Shown one piece after another: positions 5,547 through 53,527 of a stretch of DNA of 64,000 nucleotides. The stretch is from Ilumatobacteraceae bacterium (GTDB lineage: Bacteria; Actinomycetota; Acidimicrobiia; Acidimicrobiales; Ilumatobacteraceae): contig JBDSKN010000015.1 of assembly GCA_039916865.1 (NCBI GenBank), positions 6,225 through 70,224 of the forward strand, given 5' to 3'. Made by a program: the position numbers and the translations under genes. Each line of letters starts with the position of its first letter. The first letter of the stretch is position 1. A model generated the notes under the pieces. That model was not told the DNA's origin and did not search any database. It worked only from the letters and a program-made list of their open reading frames with translations.

Positions 5547-7214
5547 TTATACGTTGTGCGCAGCGGCAGATTCAAACTGTTGCATGCCGTTGGCATAGAA
5601 GCCTGCCAGGCCCTTGCGAACAACTGCTGTCTGGGTGCCGAAGTAAAGGAAAAGATACGGAGTGTCCTCCAAGCAGAGTTCTTGAATACTCTTGCTGGCT
5701 GCCTTACGAGCATCATCGGTGGTTGCCGAGATGTACACATCGGCCGCCGCATCGAATGCATCGCTCTTGTAGTGGGCGGCGTTCCAGTCGCCTGTGGATT
5801 TGAATGCACGGGTGAGAATTTCGACTGGCGAGCCACGGTGTCCCCAGTTCGTAATACCAAAATTGGACTCGAGCCAAACGTGGTTCTCCACCTCTTTGGA
5901 TTCCTGTGCGGTCCACGGTGGTGAATAGTAAGAATCGGCCAACTTAATAGTGACCTTGATGCCGATTTCAGCCAGTGACGATTGCAGGAATGGTGCCAGT
6001 AAATTGATGTCGTCGCGAGCAAAACTGGACAGGTCAACTTCGAATCCGTCGGCGACCCCCGCTTCCGCCATTAGTGCTTTCGCTTTGACCAAGTCCTTTT
6101 CTCGCTGGGGCACCGAGGTGTCCTTAGTCGCATACGCGTCCATGATGCTGTCGTTTCCAACCACACCCGAACCTTTGAGCACGCCGTCCACGTAATCTTG
6201 ACGGGCAAGCGTTAAGGCTGCGGCCTGACGGACTCGCTTGTCTTGGAACGGCCCGAAATCGTTGCGCATATGAACTGCCAAGTGGCCAGAAGATGCAACC
6301 TGAACTAGGTCAGCTCGGCTGAGGTCGATGGTCGCTGCGACGGCAGGGGTGACACCAACAATGGCATCGATCTGACCCGTTACCAACTGAGCCACGGCGG
6401 ATTCGGCGGACTCAAACTGGATGACTTCAAGCGCATCGAAGGATGGGATTCGAGAGGGGTCCCAATAATTGTCGTTGCGGGTGAAGGTGGTGCGGTCTCC
6501 CTCGGTGTACTTGTCGAGCACCCAAGGTCAGCAGCCGTTCATCGTGGTCTGCCAGCCTTCGCCGCCGCTCTCGCCATCTTTAAAGATGAACAAGCCATAA
6601 CTGGTGGAACTGAGGATGCTTGGGAAACTACCTACTGCCCCGAGCAGTGAGAACTGAACCGTATTGTCGTCGATCTTGGTGATGCCATCGGCCTCCAAGA
6701 TGCCCGCAAACTTTCCAGCAGATTGCGAGGCGTTGTCTGGATTTAGGTGGCTACTGATTGTCCACACCACGTCGTTGGCGGAAAGGGGAGAGCCATCGTG
6801 GAAGGTGATGCCTTGCCGGATCACATATGTCCATGTTTGACCACCGTCGTCGCTACTCCAACTTTCGGCAACACGAGGAGCAAGTTCACCCTTATCGTCC
6901 TCCCAGGCAAGGTATTCACCTACTGCGCAAAGAATTTGCAAACTACCTTCGTCGGCCGTTGTAAAAGGTGTTGGGGCCGCGGCAAGTTTGCCGCCTGCTA
7001 CTCGCAGCGTGCCACCTTGGGCAACACCTGGATCAACTGTCGTATCCGTGCCAACGCTGGTTGTGCTTGCCGATTTATCGTCGCTCCCGCATGCAGCGAG
7101 GCCGAAAAGACTTGCTCCCAAACCGGCTACGGCAACACCCTTAATAAAGTGGCGGCGCGTCAACCCACTTGTTGCGGATACGACATCACTAATTTGCTTT
7201 TCGATTTCAGACAT
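5547..7214 (-). pseudogene. Family-5 ABC substrate-binding lipoprotein interrupted by one in-frame TGA (6528-6530)
   Basis: ORFs 6528..7226 and 5547..6521 are in the same frame, separated only by TGA-CCT-TGG. The N-terminal part carries a Tat-like signal plus lipobox (TRRHFIKGVAVAGLGASLFGLAAC). The junction reads ...TTMNGC*PWVLDKYTEGDRTTFTRNDNYWD. A GGGGG RBS-like run lies 5' of ATG 7214. Confidence 0.7.
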
Positions 7215-7292
7215 ATGTCCCCCCACAGGCTGATGTGTCAGCGGTAACCATAGTCTCGATACTCACGGGCGTGCCAATGACTTTGCAAGAAA

Positions 7293-7541
7293 TTAACCCT
7301 GGAGGAGGTCTGAACTGTCGATCTTGAGGGCCGTGGAGAGCCGGACGATGGTGTCCATTGCCGGCGAAAAGTGGCCGTTTTCAATGCGGTTTATCGTTTT
7401 TCGGTCAACGCCGGCAATTTGGGCCAGTCGGGCCTGGCTGAGGTCATGGTCCTGACGAAGTTCGTACAGCCTTGCGGCTAGGACAAGGCGTTGCTCTTTG
7501 ACGCGACGCTTGAGCAACGCTGCTGTAATTTTCTGTGCCAT
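7293..7541 (-). CDS. XRE-family helix-turn-helix transcriptional regulator
   Basis: 82 aa containing LSQARLAQIAGVDRKTINRIENG, a Cro/C1-type HTH. Sits directly upstream of the ABC operon on the same strand. Confidence 0.8.
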   Translation of the reverse strand: MAQKITAALLKRRVKEQRLVLAARLYELRQDHDLSQARLAQIAGVDRKTINRIENGHFSPAMDTIVRLSTALKIDSSDLLQG

Positions 7542-10059: not shown

Positions 10060-11169
10060 ATGCCGGTTAGCCACGTTGAAATAGTCCGTGCTCATATCAA
10101 TCTTGTCGCGCCATTTCGCACTTCATTTGGCGTGGAAACCGATCGCGACTTGCTTTATGTCCATGTAATTGGAGACGATCAGGAGGGTTGGGGCGAGTGC
10201 GTCGCCATGGCCGATCCACTTTATTCCTCTGAATACGTGGACGGATGTGAGGAAGTGATTCGTCGGTATCTGCTGCCGCTGGTAGATGCCAATGTGACGG
10301 CCGAAACGTTCGCCGCCGCCGCCGCCCCAATTCGTGGAAACTTTATGGCCAAGGCGGCGATTGAAGCGGCACTGCTTGACTATCAACTACGCGTCGCCAA
10401 ACAATCGCTGGCCTCGTATCTGGGTGCGACCCAAGCCCGTGTCGCGTCCGGGGTATCGGTTGGAATTCAATCGACAATTGATGGTCTCATCGAAGTGGTG
10501 GCCAAGTATGTCGCGCAGGGCTACGTACGGATTAAATTGAAAATTGAACCGGGTCACGACATTGAAAATGTCCGCGCGGTGCGGGATTCATTTGGATCGG
10601 AAATGCTGTTGCAAGTGGATGCAAACGCGGCCTACTCGGTGGAAGACAGCAAGCACCTGTCGCAACTCGATGAATTTGGATTACTGCTCATTGAGCAACC
10701 GCTCGCAGAGGAAGATCTTGCCGGTCATGTCACGCTCGCCAGCCAAATCTCCACTCCAATTTGCCTGGACGAATCAATTACCTCATGTGAGGTTGCGCGT
10801 GGCGCGCTCGACCTTGGTGCATGTTCGATAATCAACATCAAACCGGGTCGCGTCGGCGGCTATCTTGAGGCTCGCAAAATTCACGATCTGTGTCTATCTC
10901 GGGGCGTAGCCGTGTGGTGTGGGGGGATGCTCGAGACTGGGATTGGCCGCGCCGCAAACTTGGCCCTGGCCGCTTTGCCTGGTTTTACTTTGCCGGGGGA
11001 CACCTCGGCATCCGCCAGATATTTTGCCCAGGATGTCACTAGGCCATTTGTGCTAATTGACGGCTATATAGAGGTACCAACCGGCGATGGTATTGGGGTC
11101 GTTCCGATCCCGGAAGTGCTTGATGAAATGATGGTTCGCCGCGAGAGTTTCGCCGTCGCCAGAAGCTAA
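10060..11169 (+). CDS. Enolase-superfamily enzyme, o-succinylbenzoate synthase / N-acylamino acid racemase type
   Basis: KxK motif (IKLKIEPG), metal ligands in LQVDANAAY, LIEQPL and LDES, and second catalytic Lys in NIKPGRVGG. Confidence 0.85.
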   Translation: MPVSHVEIVRAHINLVAPFRTSFGVETDRDLLYVHVIGDDQEGWGECVAMADPLYSSEYVDGCEEVIRRYLLPLVDANVTAETFAAAAAPIRGNFMAKAAIEAALLDYQLRVAKQSLASYLGATQARVASGVSVGIQSTIDGLIEVVAKYVAQGYVRIKLKIEPGHDIENVRAVRDSFGSEMLLQVDANAAYSVEDSKHLSQLDEFGLLLIEQPLAEEDLAGHVTLASQISTPICLDESITSCEVARGALDLGACSIINIKPGRVGGYLEARKIHDLCLSRGVAVWCGGMLETGIGRAANLALAALPGFTLPGDTSASARYFAQDVTRPFVLIDGYIEVPTGDGIGVVPIPEVLDEMMVRRESFAVARS

Positions 11170-12116
11170 CGGGAACGGCGGGTGACCAAATCCAGCATCT
11201 CGTTGAATCGAGGGCTTTCAAAGTCAGATTGAGCGCGCTCGTATTTTTCCATTCCCCATTGCCAGAAGTCGAAATCGAACGTTGAGATGGATTGCTGGAT
11301 CGAAGCCCACAGAGTCCATCCGTATTTTGACATCAGCGCTAGAAACCATGCGCGAGCAATTTTTTCCGGCCTATGGCTCTCGTAATAGGCTTCGACTAGT
11401 TCGAGCAAGCAGTCATACTCGAGCGATGCCTCCGACCAGATATTTCCAAGTTCGAAGCAAGCGTCGTTGTTTCCCGAGTATTCGTAGTCGATGATCCAAA
11501 TTTTTTTGCCGTCGTCGATGAAATTGGCGGGTAGCAAGTCGTTGTTGCAGGGAACCGTTCCCTCGTCAAGAACTTTCAGGGCTTGCTCTATCTGAATAAT
11601 TTGTGGCAGGTACGAGACGTATTTATCCGGCAACCGATAGCCATTTTGCCGAACGGTATGCAGATACAGCCGCTGGATATCAAACATGTTGAAATTGCTG
11701 ACAAAGGGTTTCGCCCCGTGCAGAATACGACAACTTGCGGCGATCCGCCCCAAGTTGTTGGCAACATCGTGTGGGCCATATGTTCGACCTTCGAGAAATC
11801 CGATCACCAGCAATCCCTGGTCGGGAATGTAATCGTGGACGGGAGCACCAATTCCCACCAGTGCAGCGATCTTGGAGTTTTCGTACTCGCTTTCTCGATT
11901 TATAGCCAGCATCGACGATGTGTTGCTTGAAACGCGTGCGACGTACTTGCCCGAAGGTGTATCGATGGCCATATTGCGGTTGGTCAATCCGCCAGACAGT
12001 TCGCGGATTCGGGTGCGATCCCTCAGCAGGGGAACTTGGTCGAACAATTTTCGGTAGTTTTCGTCAATTGCTTCGTCCAAACCATCCACCACATCGACAG
12101 GATACATTTTCTCCAT
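11166..12116 (-). CDS. Choline/ethanolamine-kinase-like phosphotransferase (APH/ChoK family)
   Basis: LSGGLTNRN, Brenner motif CNNDLLPANF, and ChoK motif IIDYEYSGNNDACFELGN. Start is uncertain between ATG 12116 and ATG 12107; the ORF-track start 12152 would overlap the divergent gene. Confidence 0.75.
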   Translation of the reverse strand: MEKMYPVDVVDGLDEAIDENYRKLFDQVPLLRDRTRIRELSGGLTNRNMAIDTPSGKYVARVSSNTSSMLAINRESEYENSKIAALVGIGAPVHDYIPDQGLLVIGFLEGRTYGPHDVANNLGRIAASCRILHGAKPFVSNFNMFDIQRLYLHTVRQNGYRLPDKYVSYLPQIIQIEQALKVLDEGTVPCNNDLLPANFIDDGKKIWIIDYEYSGNNDACFELGNIWSEASLEYDCLLELVEAYYESHRPEKIARAWFLALMSKYGWTLWASIQQSISTFDFDFWQWGMEKYERAQSDFESPRFNEMLDLVTRRSR

Positions 12117-14565
12117 GTCTTTATCGAAACTTCCTCTTCGAGCAAGGATCATTGTTATCGGCGGAGGAGTGGGTGGGACATCGGTTGCGTATCACCTCGC
12201 CGAACTTGGTCAGCGTGATGTATTACTCGTGGATCGCAACGAACTGACGAGCGGTTCAACATTCCATTCGGCCGGTCTTGTCGGTCAACTCCGCGCCGAT
12301 CCAACATTGACGAAGATGAACATGCACTCGGTGGACTTGTACCGTCAGTTGGAACTGACGGACACTCCGCCCGGATGGAAGGAGTCCGGCAGCATAAAAC
12401 TTGCATCGTCGCCCGAGCGAATGGAGGAAATTCGTCGCCAGATCGGGTGGGCACGAAGCTTTGACTTGGACTTGCACGAGATCTCTCCCCAGGAAGCGCA
12501 GTCGCTCTTTCCCCTGATTGATTTAGACGGCGTCGTCGGGGCTTGCTACATGGCCTCGGATGGTGAAGTCGATCCGTCGCAACTTACTTACGCGATGGCC
12601 AGCGGTGCCCGCAAGGGCGGGGTGCAATTCGCAACCAACACCCGTGTGCTGGCAATTCTCACGGTAAAGGGCAGAGTTTCGAAGGTGATCACAGACCGCG
12701 GCGAGATCGAATGCGAGGTCGTCATTAATTGTGGGGGAATGTTTGCCCCGTCAATAGGGCGCATGGTGGGAGTGCGCATTCCGATCGTGCCGATGAGCCA
12801 TCAGTACATGATCACGGAGAACTTTCTAGATCCGGCCGCTAGTCGACTTCCGTCGTTACGAGACCCCGACAATCTTGTCTACTTTCGACAAGAGGTCGGC
12901 GGCCTATTGATGGGAGGGTACGAGCGCGTCTCTCAGCCATGGACGGCCAGTCCCGCACATCTTGATGACATCCCTGCCGACTTCAATTCGCGCCTTCTGG
13001 ATCAAGACTGGAATCGATTTGAAGAGATCGCCCTCAACTCGCAGCGCCGCGTGCCGATGATGGAAAGAATCGGGATGAAAAACTTCATTAACGGTCCGGA
13101 GGGATTTACGCCGGACAACGAATTCTGCTTGGGTGAAACCGAAGTAGGCGGATTCTTTGTCGCCGCAGGATTCTGTGCCCATGGCATCGCCGGTGCCGGT
13201 GGAATCGGAAAAGTAGTCGCCGAGTGGGTCATTTCAGGCGAGCCGCAAACCGATCTGTGGCACATGGACATTCGCCGCTTTGCTAAGGCATACGAGTCTC
13301 CTTCCTTCACCGTCAGTCGAGTGCAAGAAAATTACGAGTCGTACTACGACATTCACTATCCGGGCGAGGAACGCCAAAGCGCGCGACCACACAAGACTTC
13401 AACTGTTTACCCCTGGCACCTCGAATCGGGCGCCGTGTTTGGCGAAAAGGCCGGTTGGGAAAGAGTCAATTACTACCTCCCGCATGCCACCGACGATTCG
13501 TTCAGGCCGCTCGGTTGGGCCGGAAAGCATTGGTCATCGGCAACTGCCACCGAACACAATGCCACCCGCGAGTCGGGCGGACTCTTCGATGAGTCGAGTT
13601 TTGCCAAAATAGAGGTATCAGGCGATCGCGCCGGAGAATTTCTCAACATTGTCTGTGCCAACAACATTGAACGCGGGCTCGATCGAGCCGTGTATTCCCA
13701 GGCGCTAAATTCGCACGGAGGTATCGAGTGCGACTTCACCGTGACCAGGACGGGAGAGCAATCGTATTTCATTGTCACCGGCACGGCGTTCGGTACCCAT
13801 GACCTTGGTTGGCTTAAAAAGCAGAGTCGGGAATTGGATTACCCGGATGTTGTGCTCAACGATGTCACCGACAACTTTGCGTGCTTCGGGTTGTGGGGCC
13901 CAAACTCTCGGGAAATTCTTTCTGCAATCACAGCTGATGACGTGAGTAACGCTGGGTTCAAATTTATGCATTCGCGAGAAACCACAGTCGGTGGCATCTT
14001 GGCGCGCGCTACTCGGATTACGTACGTAGGCGAACTGGGCTGGGAGTTGTATGTTCCTACCGAAAACGGAGCCGCACTGTGGCAGGTACTGCTCGAAGCG
14101 GGTAAGTCGCACCAATTGATGACGTGCGGTTACCGAGCAATCGAATCGCTTCGTTTGGAAAAGGGCTACCGCGCATGGGGAGTCGAGATCAATTCTGAGA
14201 CCACCCCTTGGGAAGCAGGACTGGAATTCGCGATCGCGCTAACCAAGACAAACTTCAACGGTCGCGAGGCTCTAATTGCCTCGCGAGGCAGAGAATCCAA
14301 GAAGTTGATGGCAATGACCTTTGACGACATCCGACGGGTGCCACTGGGCAACGAACCAATTCGCATCGGAAACGAAGTTGTCGGCCGCGTCAAAAGCGGA
14401 GGTCAAGGTTTCACGATCGGCAAGGCAATTGGCTACGCCTATTTTCCAATTCAACACGCTCGCCCCGGCATCGAAATCGAAGTCGAGTTTTTTGGCCAGT
14501 GGGTAAGTGGCGTCGTGGCCCAGGATCCGCTCTTCGATCCCACTGGGTTGCGAATTCGCGCCTAA
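12115..14565 (+). CDS. FAD-dependent oxidoreductase fused to a GcvT/aminomethyltransferase domain (dimethylglycine/sarcosine dehydrogenase-like)
   Basis: N-terminal dinucleotide fold IIVIGGGVGGTSVAYHL, 816 aa, C-terminal GcvT-like block (LRLEKGYRAWG...). Confidence 0.85.
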   Translation: MSLSKLPLRARIIVIGGGVGGTSVAYHLAELGQRDVLLVDRNELTSGSTFHSAGLVGQLRADPTLTKMNMHSVDLYRQLELTDTPPGWKESGSIKLASSPERMEEIRRQIGWARSFDLDLHEISPQEAQSLFPLIDLDGVVGACYMASDGEVDPSQLTYAMASGARKGGVQFATNTRVLAILTVKGRVSKVITDRGEIECEVVINCGGMFAPSIGRMVGVRIPIVPMSHQYMITENFLDPAASRLPSLRDPDNLVYFRQEVGGLLMGGYERVSQPWTASPAHLDDIPADFNSRLLDQDWNRFEEIALNSQRRVPMMERIGMKNFINGPEGFTPDNEFCLGETEVGGFFVAAGFCAHGIAGAGGIGKVVAEWVISGEPQTDLWHMDIRRFAKAYESPSFTVSRVQENYESYYDIHYPGEERQSARPHKTSTVYPWHLESGAVFGEKAGWERVNYYLPHATDDSFRPLGWAGKHWSSATATEHNATRESGGLFDESSFAKIEVSGDRAGEFLNIVCANNIERGLDRAVYSQALNSHGGIECDFTVTRTGEQSYFIVTGTAFGTHDLGWLKKQSRELDYPDVVLNDVTDNFACFGLWGPNSREILSAITADDVSNAGFKFMHSRETTVGGILARATRITYVGELGWELYVPTENGAALWQVLLEAGKSHQLMTCGYRAIESLRLEKGYRAWGVEINSETTPWEAGLEFAIALTKTNFNGREALIASRGRESKKLMAMTFDDIRRVPLGNEPIRIGNEVVGRVKSGGQGFTIGKAIGYAYFPIQHARPGIEIEVEFFGQWVSGVVAQDPLFDPTGLRIRA

Positions 14566-14729
14566 TAAATACGAAAGTCCGAAAATACACCGTCCACACA
14601 CATTTGTTCCATATTGAGGTTCTCGAAATCGCGGGTTTCTGCCAGAAAAGATCGACACAGGCTGGGAGCGAACTGCGATACAAGTCGGTAAGCATGGTCA
14701 CTTGGAGCCAAATTTTTACGGAAGTTCCA

Positions 14730-14758
14730 TTGCTTTTAATACTTACAGTAAGTATAGT
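14730..14758 (+). promoter_or_regulatory. Putative promoter TTGCTT-17nt-TATAGT, overlapped by the 15-bp palindrome TACTTACaGTAAGTA (14740-14754)
   Basis: The -10-like hexamer ends 6 nt before ATG 14765, which is leaderless-type spacing, and no SD is visible. The perfect 7+1+7 inverted repeat spans the spacer and the -10. Confidence 0.35.
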
Positions 14759-14764
14759 AAATCT

Positions 14765-15760
14765 ATGCAGATCTCAGGACGACCTTTACTCGCCACCAGA
14801 GTCGACGCGACGCTCTACGTCGAGCGGGGTATTGAGGCGAAAGTCATTACGGCCGCTCGGCGAGGACTAAATACTCTCATCATTGGCGATGCAGGAGCAG
14901 GAAAGACAAGCCTGCTACACCGACTTGAATGGGAGTTACGCCAAGACTACTCCTCGGTTGTCTATGTCGATGGTCGCCGAAGTGATGAGCTTGACGAGAT
15001 GCTTGACAATCTTCGAATTCAACTCGGGATCGAAGCACTACCTAATCCGTCCCCATTCGCTGCTTTCTCGGGGCTGAACGAAACAATCAACGGTATTAAG
15101 TCACCGAAGTTCGTGCCTCCGACTGAACGAACGTTGAAAAGGCTAGCTGATAAGTTGCCAGCGGACAAACGCAAAATAGTTCTTCTGGATAGCCCAGAGC
15201 GCAAGGTCGCTCACACATTGTTTGGACGATTGCGCGATGTCGTTTGGCAATTGCCAATCAGTTGGATCGTAGTCGCCGATTCGAGCGCAGCCGACGCATT
15301 TCGTCGCCCGCCCGCCGATGCATTTTTTGATCTATTGGAGCGACTTGGTGGTATTAGCGCGAATGAAGGTCGAGAAATACTGCGACTCCGTGAAGTGCCG
15401 GTCAATTACATTGCAGATTTTCTATTCTCTAAGGCCACCACACCACGTATAGTGCTCGACCACGCCAGGCGATCGATTCTTGAACCACCAACATCTGACA
15501 AGTTGCAGAAGAGTGACGCCGAATTCATGAGGCGACTCAGTGTTGTTTCACGAGCGGCATCTATGTTGGCGAGCGAACTACGCGGTCAAGGTGCAGTAAG
15601 CGCGTCCGACAAAGATCTTCAGAGACGTATGAGTTGGACGCGTGAACGGTTGACCCAGGTATTAAAAGAACTCGAGGCCGCTGGGTTGGCGAAAGCAACA
15701 GAAGCCGCGGATGGGAAGCCGGGACGCCCTCGGCGCTTCTACGAGATATTGGTGTCGTAA
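14765..15760 (+). CDS. Uncharacterised P-loop ATPase with a C-terminal winged-helix-like tail
   Basis: Walker A IIGDAGAGKTSLL (nt 14885-14911) and Walker B-like KIVLLDSPE. The C-terminus reads LQRRMSWTRERLTQVLKELEAAGLAKATEAADGKPGRPRRFYEIL (HTH/wHTH-like). Start trimmed to ATG 14765; the ORF track starts at TTG 14702. Confidence 0.7.
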   Translation: MQISGRPLLATRVDATLYVERGIEAKVITAARRGLNTLIIGDAGAGKTSLLHRLEWELRQDYSSVVYVDGRRSDELDEMLDNLRIQLGIEALPNPSPFAAFSGLNETINGIKSPKFVPPTERTLKRLADKLPADKRKIVLLDSPERKVAHTLFGRLRDVVWQLPISWIVVADSSAADAFRRPPADAFFDLLERLGGISANEGREILRLREVPVNYIADFLFSKATTPRIVLDHARRSILEPPTSDKLQKSDAEFMRRLSVVSRAASMLASELRGQGAVSASDKDLQRRMSWTRERLTQVLKELEAAGLAKATEAADGKPGRPRRFYEILVS

Positions 15761-16801
15761 ATGGCCGACCTTCTCACCGAACTTCAACAGATACGCGCCT
15801 TCGACCCGACTCTACGCTTTGAGGAACTTGGCTATCTTCATGTACCGTTCGATGATCTGCACGGTTCGACAAATGTTGAAGGACGCATTCTCTCAGCCGT
15901 TGGCCGAGGCGATCGCGTTGCTCTAATTGGTACCACGGGAAACGGGAAGTCGAGTACTGCGTCGTATGTGGTGAGCCCAATGAACGAAGCGATTATCGCG
16001 TTTCGAATCGGAGTTACAGTCGAAGATCCGAATCTGTTAGCCAACCCGGGACGTTTTGCCCAGTATGTGGTGCGCCACATTGCCCGCGATGCAATGGAAG
16101 TCTCTGCGCCGCTACGAATTCAGTTGCAACTTGATGTGGCAGAAACTCATTCCGTGCGGAACGAACGATCACGGCGCGGAATTGGGAAAATCAATGCGAA
16201 GGTATTCGAATTGTCCGGCGAACTCGGCGTGGTGATGCGGTCGATTGATCAGCCAACGTCATCTCATGAGTTTATTGAAGCACTTGACCACGCACTAGAA
16301 CTGGTGCGTTCAACTGGCGCCGTCCCAGTACTTGTGATCGATGACTCTGATACGTGGCTAGAAGTTACGGGTGCAAAACTAAGTGAAACTCGTCGAGATT
16401 TTTTTGGTCCGATCATGCGAATGCTTGCTGAACGGAACTGTGGTCTTCTGGTCGCCGTCGACGAGCGCTATCTCGACAGTGACGATTATAAGCCAGCTCG
16501 CGATGGATTCCTTCCGACCGAGGTACATGTTCCTCGATTGCGTGACGCACACGATCTGGAACGCCTCTTTGCGCGACGCATCTCTGAAATCGAAAGAGCT
16601 GTTGTCGGTGACGTTTTCACGGATTCAGTAATTGACGAAATTTATGCCCATTATGCAGGTTCAAACCTCAGCCTCCGGCAACTTATGCGCTTGGTTCATT
16701 CGTCGATGTATCATGTTTCGACGCTTGGAGAGTCCCGGGTGGGTTCGGCCGCATTCGCCGCGAGCGTTCGCGAGTTTGGTGCGGAATTTCAGACAAGTTG
16801 A
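15761..16801 (+). CDS. Uncharacterised P-loop ATPase, second gene of the pair
   Basis: Walker A LIGTTGNGKSST (nt 15929-15952) and Walker B VLVIDDSDTW. A C-terminal helical segment resembles an AAA+ lid (my reading). Its ATG directly follows the TAA of the upstream gene (TAAATG). Confidence 0.7.
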   Translation: MADLLTELQQIRAFDPTLRFEELGYLHVPFDDLHGSTNVEGRILSAVGRGDRVALIGTTGNGKSSTASYVVSPMNEAIIAFRIGVTVEDPNLLANPGRFAQYVVRHIARDAMEVSAPLRIQLQLDVAETHSVRNERSRRGIGKINAKVFELSGELGVVMRSIDQPTSSHEFIEALDHALELVRSTGAVPVLVIDDSDTWLEVTGAKLSETRRDFFGPIMRMLAERNCGLLVAVDERYLDSDDYKPARDGFLPTEVHVPRLRDAHDLERLFARRISEIERAVVGDVFTDSVIDEIYAHYAGSNLSLRQLMRLVHSSMYHVSTLGESRVGSAAFAASVREFGAEFQTS

Positions 16802-16810
16802 AAAAATTTG

Positions 16811-16883
16811 TCGGGGAGGGGGGACTTGAACCCCCGGCCTCCTGGTCCCAAACCAGGCACGCTACCAACTGCGCCACTCCCCG
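16811..16883 (-). tRNA. tRNA-Pro (anticodon UGG)
   Basis: Minus-strand 73-nt cloverleaf: acceptor CGGGGAG/CTCCCCG plus discriminator A, D arm GCGC-AGTTGGTA-GCGT, anticodon stem CCTGG/CCAGG with loop TTTGGGA, T arm GGGGG-TTCAAGT-CCCCC. CCA is not encoded. Confidence 0.95.
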
Positions 16884-16908
16884 GGACGAGCCATCCTAGC
16901 GATGGGGT

Positions 16909-18081
16909 CTACCGATTCGACGCGAGAGTACGAACACAGTCGAGCAGACGCGTGACATCGTCGTCATTTACATATCGCACGACTCCAGCGCGCACGACAC
17001 CACCACTATCGGCGAGACCAAGTTGATCGACTGCCTCGACCGCGTACGAGTGTCCGGCCCACACGGCAATGCGATTCGCGGCCAACACTTGTGCCACGCG
17101 CGCGGGCGAATGTCCATCGATTGTGAACGCCACGGTTGGCGCTCGACCTTGCATCGTTTTCGGTCCCCACACACTCACGCCCTGAGTTTCGATCAACCCA
17201 TGTAATAGAGGTCCAAACACATCCGATTCGATTTGCCCGATACGCGACATGTCTTCCTCGATCAGGAAGCGAGCCGCCGCATCAACCGCGGCAATTCCTT
17301 CGAAGTTTGGGGTCCCAGTCTCAAAGCGTGCTGGTCCAATGTTGTTGGCCGGGCGCACCTTGGCAACGGGTAGATCGTTGAGCAGATTGGGTTCGATGCA
17401 CAGCACGCCGGCGTGAGGTCCATACCACTTATATGGTGAACATGCCAGGACGTCGCATCCGAGCGTTGCGACATCGATGGGCTGATGTACCGCTAGGTGC
17501 ACGGCATCGACAAACACGCGAGCGCCAGCATCATGGGCAGCACGAATAATTGGCGCCAGGTGAGGTGTAGTGCCAAGGAGATTGGAAGCCCCGGTGACGG
17601 CAACCCACGCAGTTCGATCATTGATCAGATTGATAACCGCAGATGGTTCCAAGATTCCGGTAGTCGCATCGAATGGGGCTAAGACATGTTCTGCGCCCGC
17701 CATCTCGCAGGCAATCCGCCAAGTGGAGACATTTGAATCATGATCGAGTCGAGTTCCCACCACTCGGTCGCCTGGTTTGAGCATTTTTGCCACGGCACGG
17801 GTGAAGGCCATGGTCATCGTCGTCATATTGGCGCCCAAACAGACCCCGGCGGCATCCGCGTTGAACAATTGAGCCACCGTGTTGCGGGTGCGACTCATCA
17901 ACGCATCGCATTCCTGTGCCGCGGAAAAGGAGCCGCCGCAATTGGCGTTTGAGCCATTTGTTGCCCAGTCGGTCATCGCCCGAATTGCCACATCCACCAT
18001 CTGGGTACCGGCCGGACCATCAAAGCGAGCCCATCCGTCGCGCACGCCGGGAAAGCGATGGCGAATGTCTGGCAAAATCAC
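16909..18081 (-). CDS. Class V aminotransferase / cysteine desulfurase family protein
   Basis: PLP-lysine context ACSPYKWYGPHAGV, plus VAVTGASNLLGT and FVDAVHLAVHQPIDV. Confidence 0.85.
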   Translation of the reverse strand: MILPDIRHRFPGVRDGWARFDGPAGTQMVDVAIRAMTDWATNGSNANCGGSFSAAQECDALMSRTRNTVAQLFNADAAGVCLGANMTTMTMAFTRAVAKMLKPGDRVVGTRLDHDSNVSTWRIACEMAGAEHVLAPFDATTGILEPSAVINLINDRTAWVAVTGASNLLGTTPHLAPIIRAAHDAGARVFVDAVHLAVHQPIDVATLGCDVLACSPYKWYGPHAGVLCIEPNLLNDLPVAKVRPANNIGPARFETGTPNFEGIAAVDAAARFLIEEDMSRIGQIESDVFGPLLHGLIETQGVSVWGPKTMQGRAPTVAFTIDGHSPARVAQVLAANRIAVWAGHSYAVEAVDQLGLADSGGVVRAGVVRYVNDDDVTRLLDCVRTLASNR

Positions 18082-18084
18082 CGA

Positions 18085-18357
18085 CTACGAATTGCGCTTG
18101 GCCGCTTTGGCTAATCGACGCGCGGTTTTACCGATCGGCTTAAAGTGTCGCTGGTCAAGATCGGCAACTTCAACTCCATTTGCAAAACGGACGCGATAGC
18201 GAAGCCAATTGAACCCGTTAGCCAAAATTATTTTACCTTCGGAACCAGCGGGTGCTTGCGCAAGGTCGACAGTGGTTTCGACAACGTCACCAATTTTTAG
18301 GTTGATTTGTTGTGGGTGCGGAAACGCTAAGACATGCGGTTTCCACGAGGCTGTCAC
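18085..18357 (-). CDS. Hypothetical small protein (90 aa)
   Basis: ORF ends 3 nt before the desulfurase-family start on the same strand. No recognisable motif. Confidence 0.45.
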   Translation of the reverse strand: MTASWKPHVLAFPHPQQINLKIGDVVETTVDLAQAPAGSEGKIILANGFNWLRYRVRFANGVEVADLDQRHFKPIGKTARRLAKAAKRNS

Positions 18358-31383: not shown

Positions 31384-31446
31384 ATTTCGTTGCCGTATCA
31401 TTTAATAGCCCAATTTGACTACTCACCGATAGGATAAGAAACCGTT

Positions 31447-31758
31447 ATGTACGCAGTGATTGCAACAGGTGGCAAGCAAGAGAAGGTCTCCAAGGGTCAA
31501 CAGGTCCAAGTTGAGCTTCTAGATATTGCCGAAGGTGCCGTGGTTCGCTTTACCCCGGTGCTTGTTGTCGACGGATCGAGCGTGCTTTCAACTCCGGATC
31601 AGTTATCTAAGTCTTCGGTTACCGCCAAAGTAGTCGGCAAGGCGGCGGGACCAAAGATCGATGGATTTACCTACAAGAACAAAACGAATCAGCGTCGTCG
31701 TTTTGGTCATCGTCAGAAGTATTCGGTAATCGAAATTACCGACATCGCGAAAGGCTAA
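31447..31758 (+). CDS. rplU: 50S ribosomal protein L21
   Basis: MYAVIATGGKQEKVSKGQ... and KNKTNQRRRFGHRQ. Confidence 0.95.
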   Translation: MYAVIATGGKQEKVSKGQQVQVELLDIAEGAVVRFTPVLVVDGSSVLSTPDQLSKSSVTAKVVGKAAGPKIDGFTYKNKTNQRRRFGHRQKYSVIEITDIAKG

Positions 31759-31761
31759 TTG

Positions 31762-32016
31762 ATGTCAAAGACAAAGGGCGGCGGCTCAACACGCAATGGT
31801 CGCGACTCCAACGCGCAGCGATTGGGGGTCAAGGTATTCGACGGAACGTTAATCACCGCGGGCACGATCCTGATTCGTCAGCGCGGCACAAAGGTGCATC
31901 CCGGAAATAATGTTGGCATCGGCAAAGACGACACTTTATTTGCTCTGGCCGCCGGGAACGTAAAATTTGGTGAACGTCGTGGCCGTAGGGTCGTCGATGT
32001 TGTGGCGCCTAGCTAA
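31762..32016 (+). CDS. rpmA: 50S ribosomal protein L27
   Basis: [24 protein letters not shown]...[15 protein letters not shown]. The ORF track starts one codon earlier, at TTG 31759. Confidence 0.95.
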
Positions 32017-32028
32017 CTGCGAATCAAG

Positions 32029-52514: not shown

Positions 52515-52740
52515 TCGCCGGCGTGTGATCTGAGTACGCAGAATGAGAACAAGTCCAAGCATGAACTTGTAATCAATAGGCGATTTGACTTGAAGGATGC
52601 CCCCGATGCGTTTCGTTATCTCGAACTTGGCCACGCCCGGGGCAAGATAATAATTACCCCTTAATCGCCCGCAAGTCCATTAAATAAGGCATTCATCCGC
52701 TTCCTTGGAATTTCGCCGACTCTATTTTGACACCCTCTCC

Positions 52741-52786
52741 GTGGGGCAAAGTGGGGGCTAATACATCTCTGTGGGGCAAAGTGGGG
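52741..52786 (+). promoter_or_regulatory. Array of four GTGGGG boxes in 10-bp register; putative MraZ operator
   Basis: The 16-mer GTGGGGCAAAGTGGGG occurs twice (52741-52756 and 52771-52786), placing boxes at 52741, 52751, 52771 and 52781. This is 72-117 nt upstream of the mraZ GTG. A TTGACA lies at 52727-52732 and a TATAGT at 52788-52793. Confidence 0.5.
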
Positions 52787-52857
52787 ATATAGTGCTCGAC
52801 AGGGAAGTGGAGTGATCTCCGCCCCCTGGCAGCAAGAAAACGGCAGCGGAGGCCACG

Positions 52858-53274
52858 GTGTTTGTAGGGGTACATGAACGACAGCTCGACCCCAAGGGTC
52901 GCGTTGCGCTCCCAGCAACATTCCGCCCGCAACTCGAGCCACGCTGTTACCTCTCAATTGGCCGCGATAAGTGCGTAGACGTACTCACCGCGGCCTCCTT
53001 TGAGGAAGTTGCGCGAGATTCCGTGGCCAAAGTGCGCGCAGGCGAAATGGATCGAAATCAACAACGCGCGCTTGCCTCTAACACGTTTGAAGTTGCGGTG
53101 GATGCCCAAGGACGAATCAATGTCGACGAGAAACTGCGCCAGTACGCCGGACTCCAGTTGAATTCGCGAATTGTCGTGGCCGGATCGTTCGACCGGGTTG
53201 AACTGTGGGAGTCCGACCGTCATGGACGGATAAGTAGTGAGGGAATTACTCAGATCGCCGGACTCGAGTCGTGA
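52858..53274 (+). CDS. mraZ: Transcriptional regulator MraZ
   Basis: (M)FVGVHERQLDPKGRVALPATFR and a second SpoVT/AbrB-like repeat DAQGRINVDEKLR. A GGAGG RBS lies 5 nt upstream. Confidence 0.95.
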   Translation: MFVGVHERQLDPKGRVALPATFRPQLEPRCYLSIGRDKCVDVLTAASFEEVARDSVAKVRAGEMDRNQQRALASNTFEVAVDAQGRINVDEKLRQYAGLQLNSRIVVAGSFDRVELWESDRHGRISSEGITQIAGLES

Positions 53275-53359
53275 ATTCAGATTTTGTTTGTCGTGAATCC
53301 GAAAGGGGGGTCTGAAGCAAAACGTTGTAGTGCAACCACCTTCGACGTAGCAACCATTT

Positions 53360-53476
53360 CACCCATCAGCAGTCTCCCGGTCAGCAAATGGACAGCTCCT
53401 ACTCCGCCCGCTTCCATTCGCTCGATCCGGGGAGAAATCCCGGCGGCATAGCAGGCCGGGGGGCTGCTGATGGGTG
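53360..53476 (+). ncRNA. Structured cis-RNA in the mraZ-rsmH spacer (mraW-motif-like)
   Basis: A 23-bp closing helix pairs 53360-53382 (CACCCATCAGCAGTCTCCCGGTC) with 53454-53476 (GGCCGGGGGGCTGCTGATGGGTG), including 3 G-U pairs. Inside are a 10-bp stem (53383-53392 / 53413-53422, 1 mismatch) and a GAAA-capped hairpin (53427-53443). Confidence 0.45.
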
Positions 53477-53527
53477 GGGCGGTACTCGCGCTAGGTCGGA
53501 TTGCCCGCAGACGGCTTCGTTACTTTC

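Follow-up and report, generated by a model that had tools for sequence, protein, structure and literature searches.

A mobile pair of ORC/Cdc6-STAND-type AAA+ ATPase genes beside tRNA-Pro in an Ilumatobacteraceae genome: a candidate two-component counter-invader module

A stretch of 64,000 nucleotides from an Ilumatobacteraceae bacterium (assembly GCA_039916865.1, contig JBDSKN010000015.1, positions 6,225 to 70,224 of the forward strand), called the window hereafter, carries a cassette of two abutting ATPase genes at positions 14566 to 16810, next to a tRNA-Pro gene. Their products, here named after genes 1 and 2, are AAA+ ATPases that belong to the ORC/Cdc6-STAND branch and are distantly paralogous to each other. 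The two genes form a strictly paired and horizontally mobile unit that is found at a different site in each lineage, and a few relatives are fused to domains known from immune effectors. In our judgment the cassette is probably, though far from certainly, an unnamed two-component module of ORC/Cdc6-STAND-type AAA+ proteins that would co-assemble on DNA against invading replicons, in anti-phage or anti-plasmid conflict. In the present article, we describe the two proteins and their families, the distribution and neighbourhoods of the pair, and the competing explanations, and we compare the cassette with known systems.

Both genes are encoded on the + strand. Gene 1 (14765..15760) has an ATG start and encodes 331 amino acids (aa), gene 2 (15761..16801) encodes 346 aa, and the two meet without any spacer in a TAAATG junction (15758-15763, ...GTGTCG TAA ATG GCC...). 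The automated list of open reading frames (ORFs) started gene 1 at a TTG codon at position 14702, an upstream extension giving 352 aa. The ATG at 14765 is the likely start: it yields 331 aa, the length of a database protein with 100% identity (P0001), and agrees with where the homologues begin. The genes are currently annotated merely as 'ATP-binding protein' or 'hypothetical protein'. An earlier interpretation of the window, made from the letters alone and referred to below as the sequence-only reading, had described two coupled P-loop ATPase genes at this junction and regarded them as an uncharacterised cassette. Both statements hold: the gene layout is as described, and generic P-loop or AAA matches were all that the searches returned. 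The four nucleotide-binding motifs that it had listed are all present and fall in conserved alignment columns.

The identical counterpart of gene 1, P0001, is recorded as 'MAG: ATP-binding protein, Ilumatobacteraceae' (MAG, metagenome-assembled genome). In Pfam, the gene 1 protein matches AAA_22 at 30.3 bits (cut-off 27), while AAA_16, nSTAND, NACHT and ATPase_2 stay below threshold. A structural model computed from the family alignment (pLDDT 87.7, pTM 0.82) shows an AAA+ base and a helical lid, with a winged helix at the C-terminus. Alignment and model numbering are one below the protein residue number, the query having begun at residue 2. The first Foldseek match of this model in the PDB is 2qby_A (E 7.4e-11, TMq 0.52), followed by 2qby_B, 2v1u and 1fnn; further matches include eukaryotic ORC/Cdc6, TnsC, RuvB, RuvBL, Apaf-1, CED-4 and the plant NLRs NRC2 and ZAR1. 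The Walker A motif (14885..14908, +) reads GDAGAGKT at residues 41-48, within the full motif GDAGAGKTSLL; both glycines never vary, and 49 of 55 homologues retain the lysine. The Walker B strand (15176..15190, +; IVLLD, residues 138-142, within IVLLDSPE) ends in a lone conserved aspartate, present in 54/55 homologues; the next position is variable and a second acidic residue is not conserved. In the lid, an arginine (R227 in alignment numbering, protein residue 228) is invariant in 55/55. The winged helix (15593..15757, +; approximately residues 277-331) contains conserved SASD and RxR motifs, follows the order H-H-H-E-E in the secondary structure of the model and gives weak matches to MarR, PadR and Lrs14. 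The model and the Foldseek results both back the winged-helix-like tail that had been recognised by eye. Two longer homologues of gene 1 (P0095 and P0106, 545-546 aa) possess a C-terminal extension of about 200 aa that consists of two tandem repeats of about 95 aa (LDAYVEVAATDLL...IHFIHDDLVAKIR) and has no Pfam match.

The gene 2 protein is 100% identical to P0121, and its sole Pfam signal is a sub-threshold AAA_16. Its model, also computed from the family alignment (pLDDT 81.3, pTM 0.80), is disordered over residues 114-144. It starts with a conserved extension (AFDPT...LHVPFD) at the N-terminus, continues with an AAA+ base into which about 100 aa are inserted between beta2 and beta3, and ends in a lid, with no winged helix. 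The lid agrees with the helical C-terminus that the sequence-only reading had taken for one, and Foldseek lends it the same backing as the model. In the PDB, 2qby_A again ranks first (E 4.8e-7, TMq 0.51), followed by 2v1u and 1w5s and later by eukaryotic ORC/Cdc6, TnsC, RuvB and RuvBL. Walker A (15929..15955, +; GTTGNGKSS, residues 57-65) has invariant G60, G62, S64 and S65, with K63 in 20/21 homologues. Walker B (16328..16357, +; VLVIDDSDTW, residues 190-199) is complete: D194, D195, D197 and W199 are invariant in 21/21, in the pattern hhhhDD(S/T)D-W. Two arginines, R273 and R306, are equally invariant (21/21).

The two families are related to each other. Aligned as profiles with hhalign, they reach a probability of 95.5% (E 1.6e-8) over 220 aligned columns, and they share two structural features. 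Walker A and Walker B, on a P-loop AAA+ base, are conserved in both, the Walker B of gene 1 having one conserved acidic residue. A helical bundle, the lid, follows beta5 in both models, and the gene 1 arginine R227 (alignment numbering) pairs with gene 2 R306 in the profile alignment; these lid arginines would correspond to sensor 2. Between beta2 and beta3, each model also has several helices, which may correspond to the helical insert of initiators (the initiator-specific motif); they are modelled with the lowest confidence (pLDDT 31-72), and in gene 1 no other part is less conserved. Genes 1 and 2 are distant paralogues of the ORC/Cdc6-STAND branch. Because the conservation of their Walker motifs differs, we infer a division of labour in which gene 2 would be the hydrolysing, catalytic subunit, presumably carrying the effector or output, and gene 1 a DNA-binding subunit acting as ATP-dependent switch.

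Searches with curated models place the pair outside the named families. The NCBIfam model TIGR02928 (orc1/cdc6) scores 16.5 and 21.7 bits with the window proteins against a cut-off of 181.3, and the Pfam ORC-CDC6-like family PF24389 matches neither; one Rhodococcoides homologue of gene 1 passes the latter at 29.4 bits (cut-off 27), over the P-loop only. PHROGs gave no match to the window proteins. Comparing the family profiles with PDB sequences returned matches of P-loop length alone (RecA, midasin, ABC transporters, ORC4), uninformative beyond a P-loop NTPase assignment. No housekeeping family matched either protein. By structure, genes 1 and 2 are members of the ORC/Cdc6 clade, yet they miss the curated orc1/cdc6 thresholds and are not demonstrably replication initiators.

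The family is large. Gene 2 homologues with E <= 1e-3 fall into at least 716 clusters at 50% identity; 261 of these reach E <= 1e-30, and nearly all are 330-360 aa long. Gene 1 has at least 221 matches. Where the source is named, it is Ilumatobacteraceae, an unclassified Acidimicrobiia MAG, Rhodococcus/Rhodococcoides or Miltoncostaea. As the remaining loci mostly lie on high-GC contigs (0.59-0.75; some from soil), the family seems to be mainly actinobacterial. Wherever sequence upstream of a gene 2 homologue was available (about 35 independent loci), a gene 1 homologue directly precedes it on the same strand, and the two genes usually overlap by 4 nt. One lineage (L072-L075; 23 contigs, for example L072 7602-9772) has an intact gene 1 followed by a gene 2 broken into two overlapping fragments, which would represent either a decaying copy or a gene 1-only derivative. 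A phage origin was considered and rejected: tblastn searches of 50,697 phage genomes gave no match, IMG/VR held no locus for either family, the PHROGs result was equally negative and a fold search of BFVD returned generic AAA+ matches alone. A plasmid origin was likewise discarded, the sole carrier among 72,556 records being linear plasmid pFiD188 of Rhodococcus fascians (2 records).

A few family members carry an additional domain. Two gene 2 homologues, P0216 (577 aa) and P0295 (595 aa), end in a TIR domain of the CAP12/Pycsar type (PF10137, E 9.8e-22). A gene 1 homologue lies ahead of P0216 (hidden Markov model [HMM] E 1.5e-89), and this TIR-fused pair (L113 6964-9734) adjoins genes for a type I methyltransferase (HsdM), a DUF5131 protein and an AAA_14/DUF4143 protein. 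The fusion is recent and rare, as its nearest plain relatives are 68% identical. A third homologue, P0202 (585 aa; L116 1132-2889), bears an N-terminal Trypsin_2 domain on the gene 2 core; it has no gene 1 partner and is divergent from a small helix-turn-helix gene. TIR domains and trypsin-like proteases are typical immune effectors activated by oligomerisation. These fusions provide the strongest single argument for a role of the family in conflict.

The accessory nature of the pair is best seen at its own locus. A gap of 8 nt separates the gene 2 stop from the 3' end of tRNA-Pro(UGG), which lies on the opposite strand (16810-16883, -; found with ARAGORN, Rfam 69.8 bits), outside the cassette, and marks its right boundary; the sequence-only reading had rightly placed the pair against this end. 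From related species, all freshwater Ilumatobacteraceae or acIV-type MAGs, 62 loci were fetched by means of the neighbouring trigger factor gene, tig (identity 54-95%). They share a conserved block composed of tRNA-Pro, a class-V aminotransferase gene, an ORF of 76-90 aa, tig, clpP and clpX. Neither gene 1 nor gene 2 was found within ~10 kb of tig in any of the 62, by tblastn or by an HMM search of all ORFs. The pair is accessory, not core, and a housekeeping interpretation was rejected on the ground of this absence from all syntenic loci. The small ORF of the block was recorded separately. In the window it lies at 18085-18357 (-), between the class-V aminotransferase gene and tig, with 90 aa listed and about 76 aa conserved, and it overlaps the listed tig start. 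It is 61-92% identical in essentially all 62 loci and has no Pfam match; it could be a conserved small protein, or the tig start could be mis-set, the ORF then representing a conserved leader.

What adjoins the tRNA differs in all four closest genomes. The window has the pair, whereas the closest relative (L007, tig 95%) has a PIN_2 toxin gene there (27-371, E 7e-25). The next (L008, tig 90%) has the same DMGDH-like gene as the window, then an opposite-strand gene for a 219-aa protein with a DM13 electron-transfer domain (6811-7470, E 4e-26), then the tRNA. In another (L010 5431-8071), the neighbours of the tRNA resemble ABC-type substrate-binding proteins by appearance. Similarity between the window and L008 ends just past the DMGDH-like stop codon, and similarity to all three genomes ends a few bases beyond the tRNA 3' end. 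The more distant relatives mostly have the same neighbour, a PNPOx-like gene adjoining the tRNA in 30 of the 33 with enough sequence, and the variability of the slot is therefore specific to the clade of the window. The left flank, described earlier as core metabolic, did not live up to that description: the choline-kinase-like and DMGDH-like genes were found in just one other relative, L008, and the 30 distant relatives differ. The whole stretch between an MR/MLE-family gene and tRNA-Pro varies by clade (window 10060-14565 versus L020 4419-8510). In L020, the single locus of this kind that was read throughout, the PNPOx-like gene is followed by genes for a histidine ammonia-lyase-like and an ornithine cyclodeaminase-like protein, both named by eye, and then by the MR/MLE-family gene; the tRNA-proximal part of this arrangement is common to 30 relatives. 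Since other clades carry different genes there, the left flank is itself replaceable.

The tRNA-Pro slot is a small flexible hotspot without an integrase. No integrase-like ORF lies between the DMGDH-like gene and tRNA-Pro in the window, no transposase adjoins the pair, and the region 14400-16950 contains neither an att-like copy of the tRNA 3' end nor terminal inverted repeats, only chance-level matches of 11-26 nt. With no integrase and no att-like repeat, integration as a tRNA-targeted island, the route suggested by the sequence-only reading, is not demonstrated. Composition gives a divided answer: third-position GC content (GC3) sets the genes apart (gene 2, 0.477, z -2.5, the lowest of 51 window genes; gene 1, 0.502, z -1.8), but bulk GC is unremarkable (z -1.0 and -1.3 for genes 1 and 2) and near that of the host. 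The upstream spacer (14566..14764, +; 199 nt) is indeed AT-richer than its surroundings, with a GC content of 0.417 against 0.543 for the window, but it ranks tenth in length among the intergenic gaps of the window and is not the longest. The promoter-like element claimed for it was not recovered by a sigma-70 consensus scan of 14566-14764; by eye, a -10-like TATAGT is visible at 14753-14758, 6 nt ahead of the gene 1 ATG, and could suit a leaderless-type promoter. A terminator scan returned a single terminator-like site, inside gene 1 and on the wrong strand, and a permissive Rfam search across the region found the tRNA alone. Elsewhere in the window, the largest stretches without a long ORF lie at 52515-53500 (986 nt) and 31384-32028 (645 nt).

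Across the family, the pair is found in varied surroundings. It lies between tsaD and a DnaJ-domain gene, between leuA and DUF1707/serA, between ftsY/Band_7 and ffh, or between aminotransferase and thiamine-biosynthesis genes, all housekeeping insertion sites. Other copies have neighbours of a different kind. In one (L071 5025-7800), a CBASS-like operon composed of a SMODS cyclase gene, a 199-aa gene and a TIR-SAVED effector gene ends 200 nt upstream of the pair, and RHS/YD-repeat toxin genes and an IS3-type transposase gene lie downstream. Another locus has TIR/ThsB, SNF2-NOV_C, methyltransferase and insertion sequence (IS) genes near the pair, and in yet another the pair has for neighbours a tyrosine integrase carrying an Mrr_N domain, a helicase and a large STAND protein. 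On pFiD188 it comes after Phd/RelE and RES toxin-antitoxin genes. In ten further metagenome loci the neighbours are mostly housekeeping genes, and genes for AbiEi, reverse transcriptase, CapP-like proteins and relaxase turn up sporadically. IS elements and transposases near the pair are occasional and non-adjacent, and none adjoins it in most loci. The pair is a horizontally mobile two-gene unit, at a different site in each lineage.

A model of what the cassette might do can be assembled from these observations. Both proteins would assemble together on DNA in an ATP-dependent manner, like paired archaeal Orc1/Cdc6 paralogues, and the assembly would serve genetic conflict by protecting the cell against phage or plasmid DNA, and it might be addictive as well. 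In the rare fused relatives, oligomerisation would switch on the TIR domain, of the NADase type, or the trypsin-like protease. In the bare form found in the window, the output would most likely be direct interference with the replication or packaging of invader DNA, or else the recruitment of a host factor. The hetero-oligomerisation, the DNA binding, the trigger and the immune outcome all belong to this proposed scheme. A narrower version, which we put forward quite tentatively, is that of an effector-less immune system: an ORC-like hetero-oligomer would load on invader DNA, ATP-driven clamping would block replication or packaging, and the fused relatives would be later abortive-infection upgrades. 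The fold of replication initiators would in this case have come to act against foreign replicons.

Several observations weigh against a role in conflict. None of the anti-phage models of PADLOC-DB v2.0.0 and NCBIfam 20.0 matches either protein over its full length; gene 1 gives matches of P-loop length alone (PDC-M54A, mad8, PtuA, DS41_1) and gene 2 none. Pfam, PADLOC, NCBIfam and PHROGs recognise no effector domain in the window pair, as the sequence-only reading had already noted. The gene 1 winged helix is fairly conserved (0.59) and not fast-evolving, which would be unusual for an invader-specific sensor. The fusions are rare, with TIR in two clusters and the protease in one. Most sampled neighbourhoods consist of ordinary housekeeping genes, and the association with defence islands amounts to roughly 4 of 11 well-sampled contexts, a figure without a background rate. 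None of the outcomes that the sequence-only reading had named as refuting it was obtained: the pair is missing from all 62 loci around tig/tRNA-Pro, GC3 of gene 2 is the lowest in the window, and no housekeeping family matches. The reading of the pair as a conflict system, also advanced in the sequence-only reading, stands in part: strict mobile pairing, some defence neighbours and the TIR and protease fusions speak for it, and the plain housekeeping nature of most contexts speaks against it. The kind of system is known, ORC/STAND-type ATPases being found in counter-invader systems, but its form is uncatalogued, and the evidence for conflict is moderate and circumstantial.

A first rival is selfish addiction. 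One ATPase would be toxic, for example by stalling replication through DNA binding, its partner would neutralise it, and the gene 1 winged helix would repress the operon, with no immune role at all; the cost of losing the pair would explain its persistence and spread. Solitary two-gene insertions amid housekeeping genes at many unrelated sites, and genes that are tightly coupled or overlapping, are what such an element would look like; a DNA-binding domain on the first gene is found in many antitoxins, Phd/RelE and RES toxin-antitoxin genes adjoin the pair on pFiD188, and a PIN_2 toxin gene occupies the same tRNA-Pro slot in the closest relative. The products themselves fit less well, both being paralogous AAA+ ATPases of ~330-350 aa with conserved nucleotide-binding motifs, unlike small antitoxins, and the TIR and protease fusions point to the logic of an activatable effector. 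Carriage by a single plasmid (2 records among 72,556) also counts against it. On balance we regard a purely addictive role as unlikely, bearing in mind that addiction and immunity are not exclusive, as many abortive-infection systems behave as toxin-antitoxin pairs.

The pair could also be a stranded or domesticated ATPase pair of a mobile element, such as a replication initiator, a partition system or a transposition-target selector, comparable to TnsC, TniB, IstB, MuB or plasmid Rep. TniB-like ATPases belong to AAA_22, the structural matches include VchTnsC (TM ~0.46-0.53), ORC/Cdc6 ancestry is that of initiators, and the pair occurs on a linear plasmid and, in one locus, beside an integrase. 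Yet no transposase, integrase or replication gene accompanies it in the great majority of the ~35 loci, the locus described here has no terminal or att repeats, none was found in the viral-contig and phage collections, one plasmid only carries it, and an intact, motif-conserving pair across 700-plus clusters is not expected of a remnant; we find this origin improbable. A patchy, lineage-specific cellular function, for instance a chromatin, replication-control or transcription regulator combining an ATPase with a winged helix, would account for the conservation of the winged helix, for bulk GC near that of the host and for the many copies amid core genes (ftsY/Band_7-ffh; next to tsaD). Such a regulator would hardly be missing from the tig/tRNA-Pro locus in all 62 relatives or change site from lineage to lineage, and it agrees poorly with the decayed copy of one lineage, with the TIR and protease fusions and with the lack of conserved functional partner genes, so that this explanation seems very improbable indeed.

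Should the preferred reading, a two-component module acting in conflict with invading replicons, be confirmed as defence or exclusion, a compact and largely actinobacterial two-gene family of at least 716 clusters would be added to bacterial immunity, and its genes could receive names. Built from ORC/Cdc6-type ATPases alone, with no canonical effector, it would raise the question of how initiator-like ATPases could stop an invader, which bears in turn on the origin of STAND/NLR-type receptors from ORC-like ancestors. The natural TIR and protease fusions offer an experimental handle.

The best structural matches of both proteins are archaeal Orc1/Cdc6 initiators, such as the Sulfolobus Orc1-1/Orc1-3 heterodimer on origin DNA (2qby) and Aeropyrum ORC1/ORC2 (2v1u, 1w5s). 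Gene 1 has the same layout of AAA+ base, lid and C-terminal winged helix, and both proteins are modelled with helices between beta2 and beta3, in low-confidence segments, that may match those of the initiators. Two paralogues acting jointly on DNA constitute an archaeal precedent for the proposed mechanism. The differences are considerable: identity is just 13-17%, gene 2 has no winged helix but a far bigger insert and a conserved N-terminal extension, and, in contrast to an essential initiator, the pair is accessory and mobile. The bacterial host presumably starts replication with DnaA.

The pair also resembles STAND NTPases (Avs, bNACHT, NLR-type immune receptors). Gene 1 corresponds to a bare core of nucleotide-binding, helical and winged-helix domains, with Apaf-1, CED-4, NRC2 and ZAR1 among its structural matches; the hhhhDDxD-W Walker B of gene 2 is of STAND/NB-ARC style, and relatives carry TIR or protease effectors. 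On the other hand, the window proteins contain no sensor repeats or effector domain, the architecture is split over two genes, and the nSTAND and NACHT Pfam scores stay below their cut-offs.

ORC/Cdc6-type ATPases are established components of BREX, Ssp and other counter-invader systems (PMC12839542, PMC10853773). AAA+ ATPases belonging to the ORC/Cdc6 clade in anti-phage systems include BrxC/PglY of BREX, with a winged helix after the lid, BrxD, a standalone ATPase, and SspC of Ssp (PMC12839542). These act together with methyltransferase, PglZ or phosphorothioate machinery, and BrxC reaches ~1,200 aa; no such partners lie beside the pair, and the Brx, Pgl and Ssp models of PADLOC match neither protein. 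Literature searches on pFiD188 ATPases, on Cdc6-like defence proteins and on new defence systems of actinobacteria (Ceres, Geb, Veles, Prithvi, Ukko, Oshun) turned up no account of the pair.

The closest parallel was drawn by comparative genomics only: mobile counter-invader operons contain two Orc/Cdc6 genes, one with a disrupted Walker B, together with a KAP NTPase, and the active copy is sometimes fused to TIR (PMC10853773). Two paralogues per operon, an impaired Walker B (gene 1) next to an active copy (gene 2), TIR fusions and a mobile context are all shared with the pair described here, the comparison resting on the published description, not on sequence. The pair is set apart because a KAP gene was never seen, despite the shared asymmetry of the paralogues and the TIR fusions; no neighbour in any examined locus was annotated as KAP_NTPase. 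It is treated here as a related but apparently distinct, unnamed variant of this theme.

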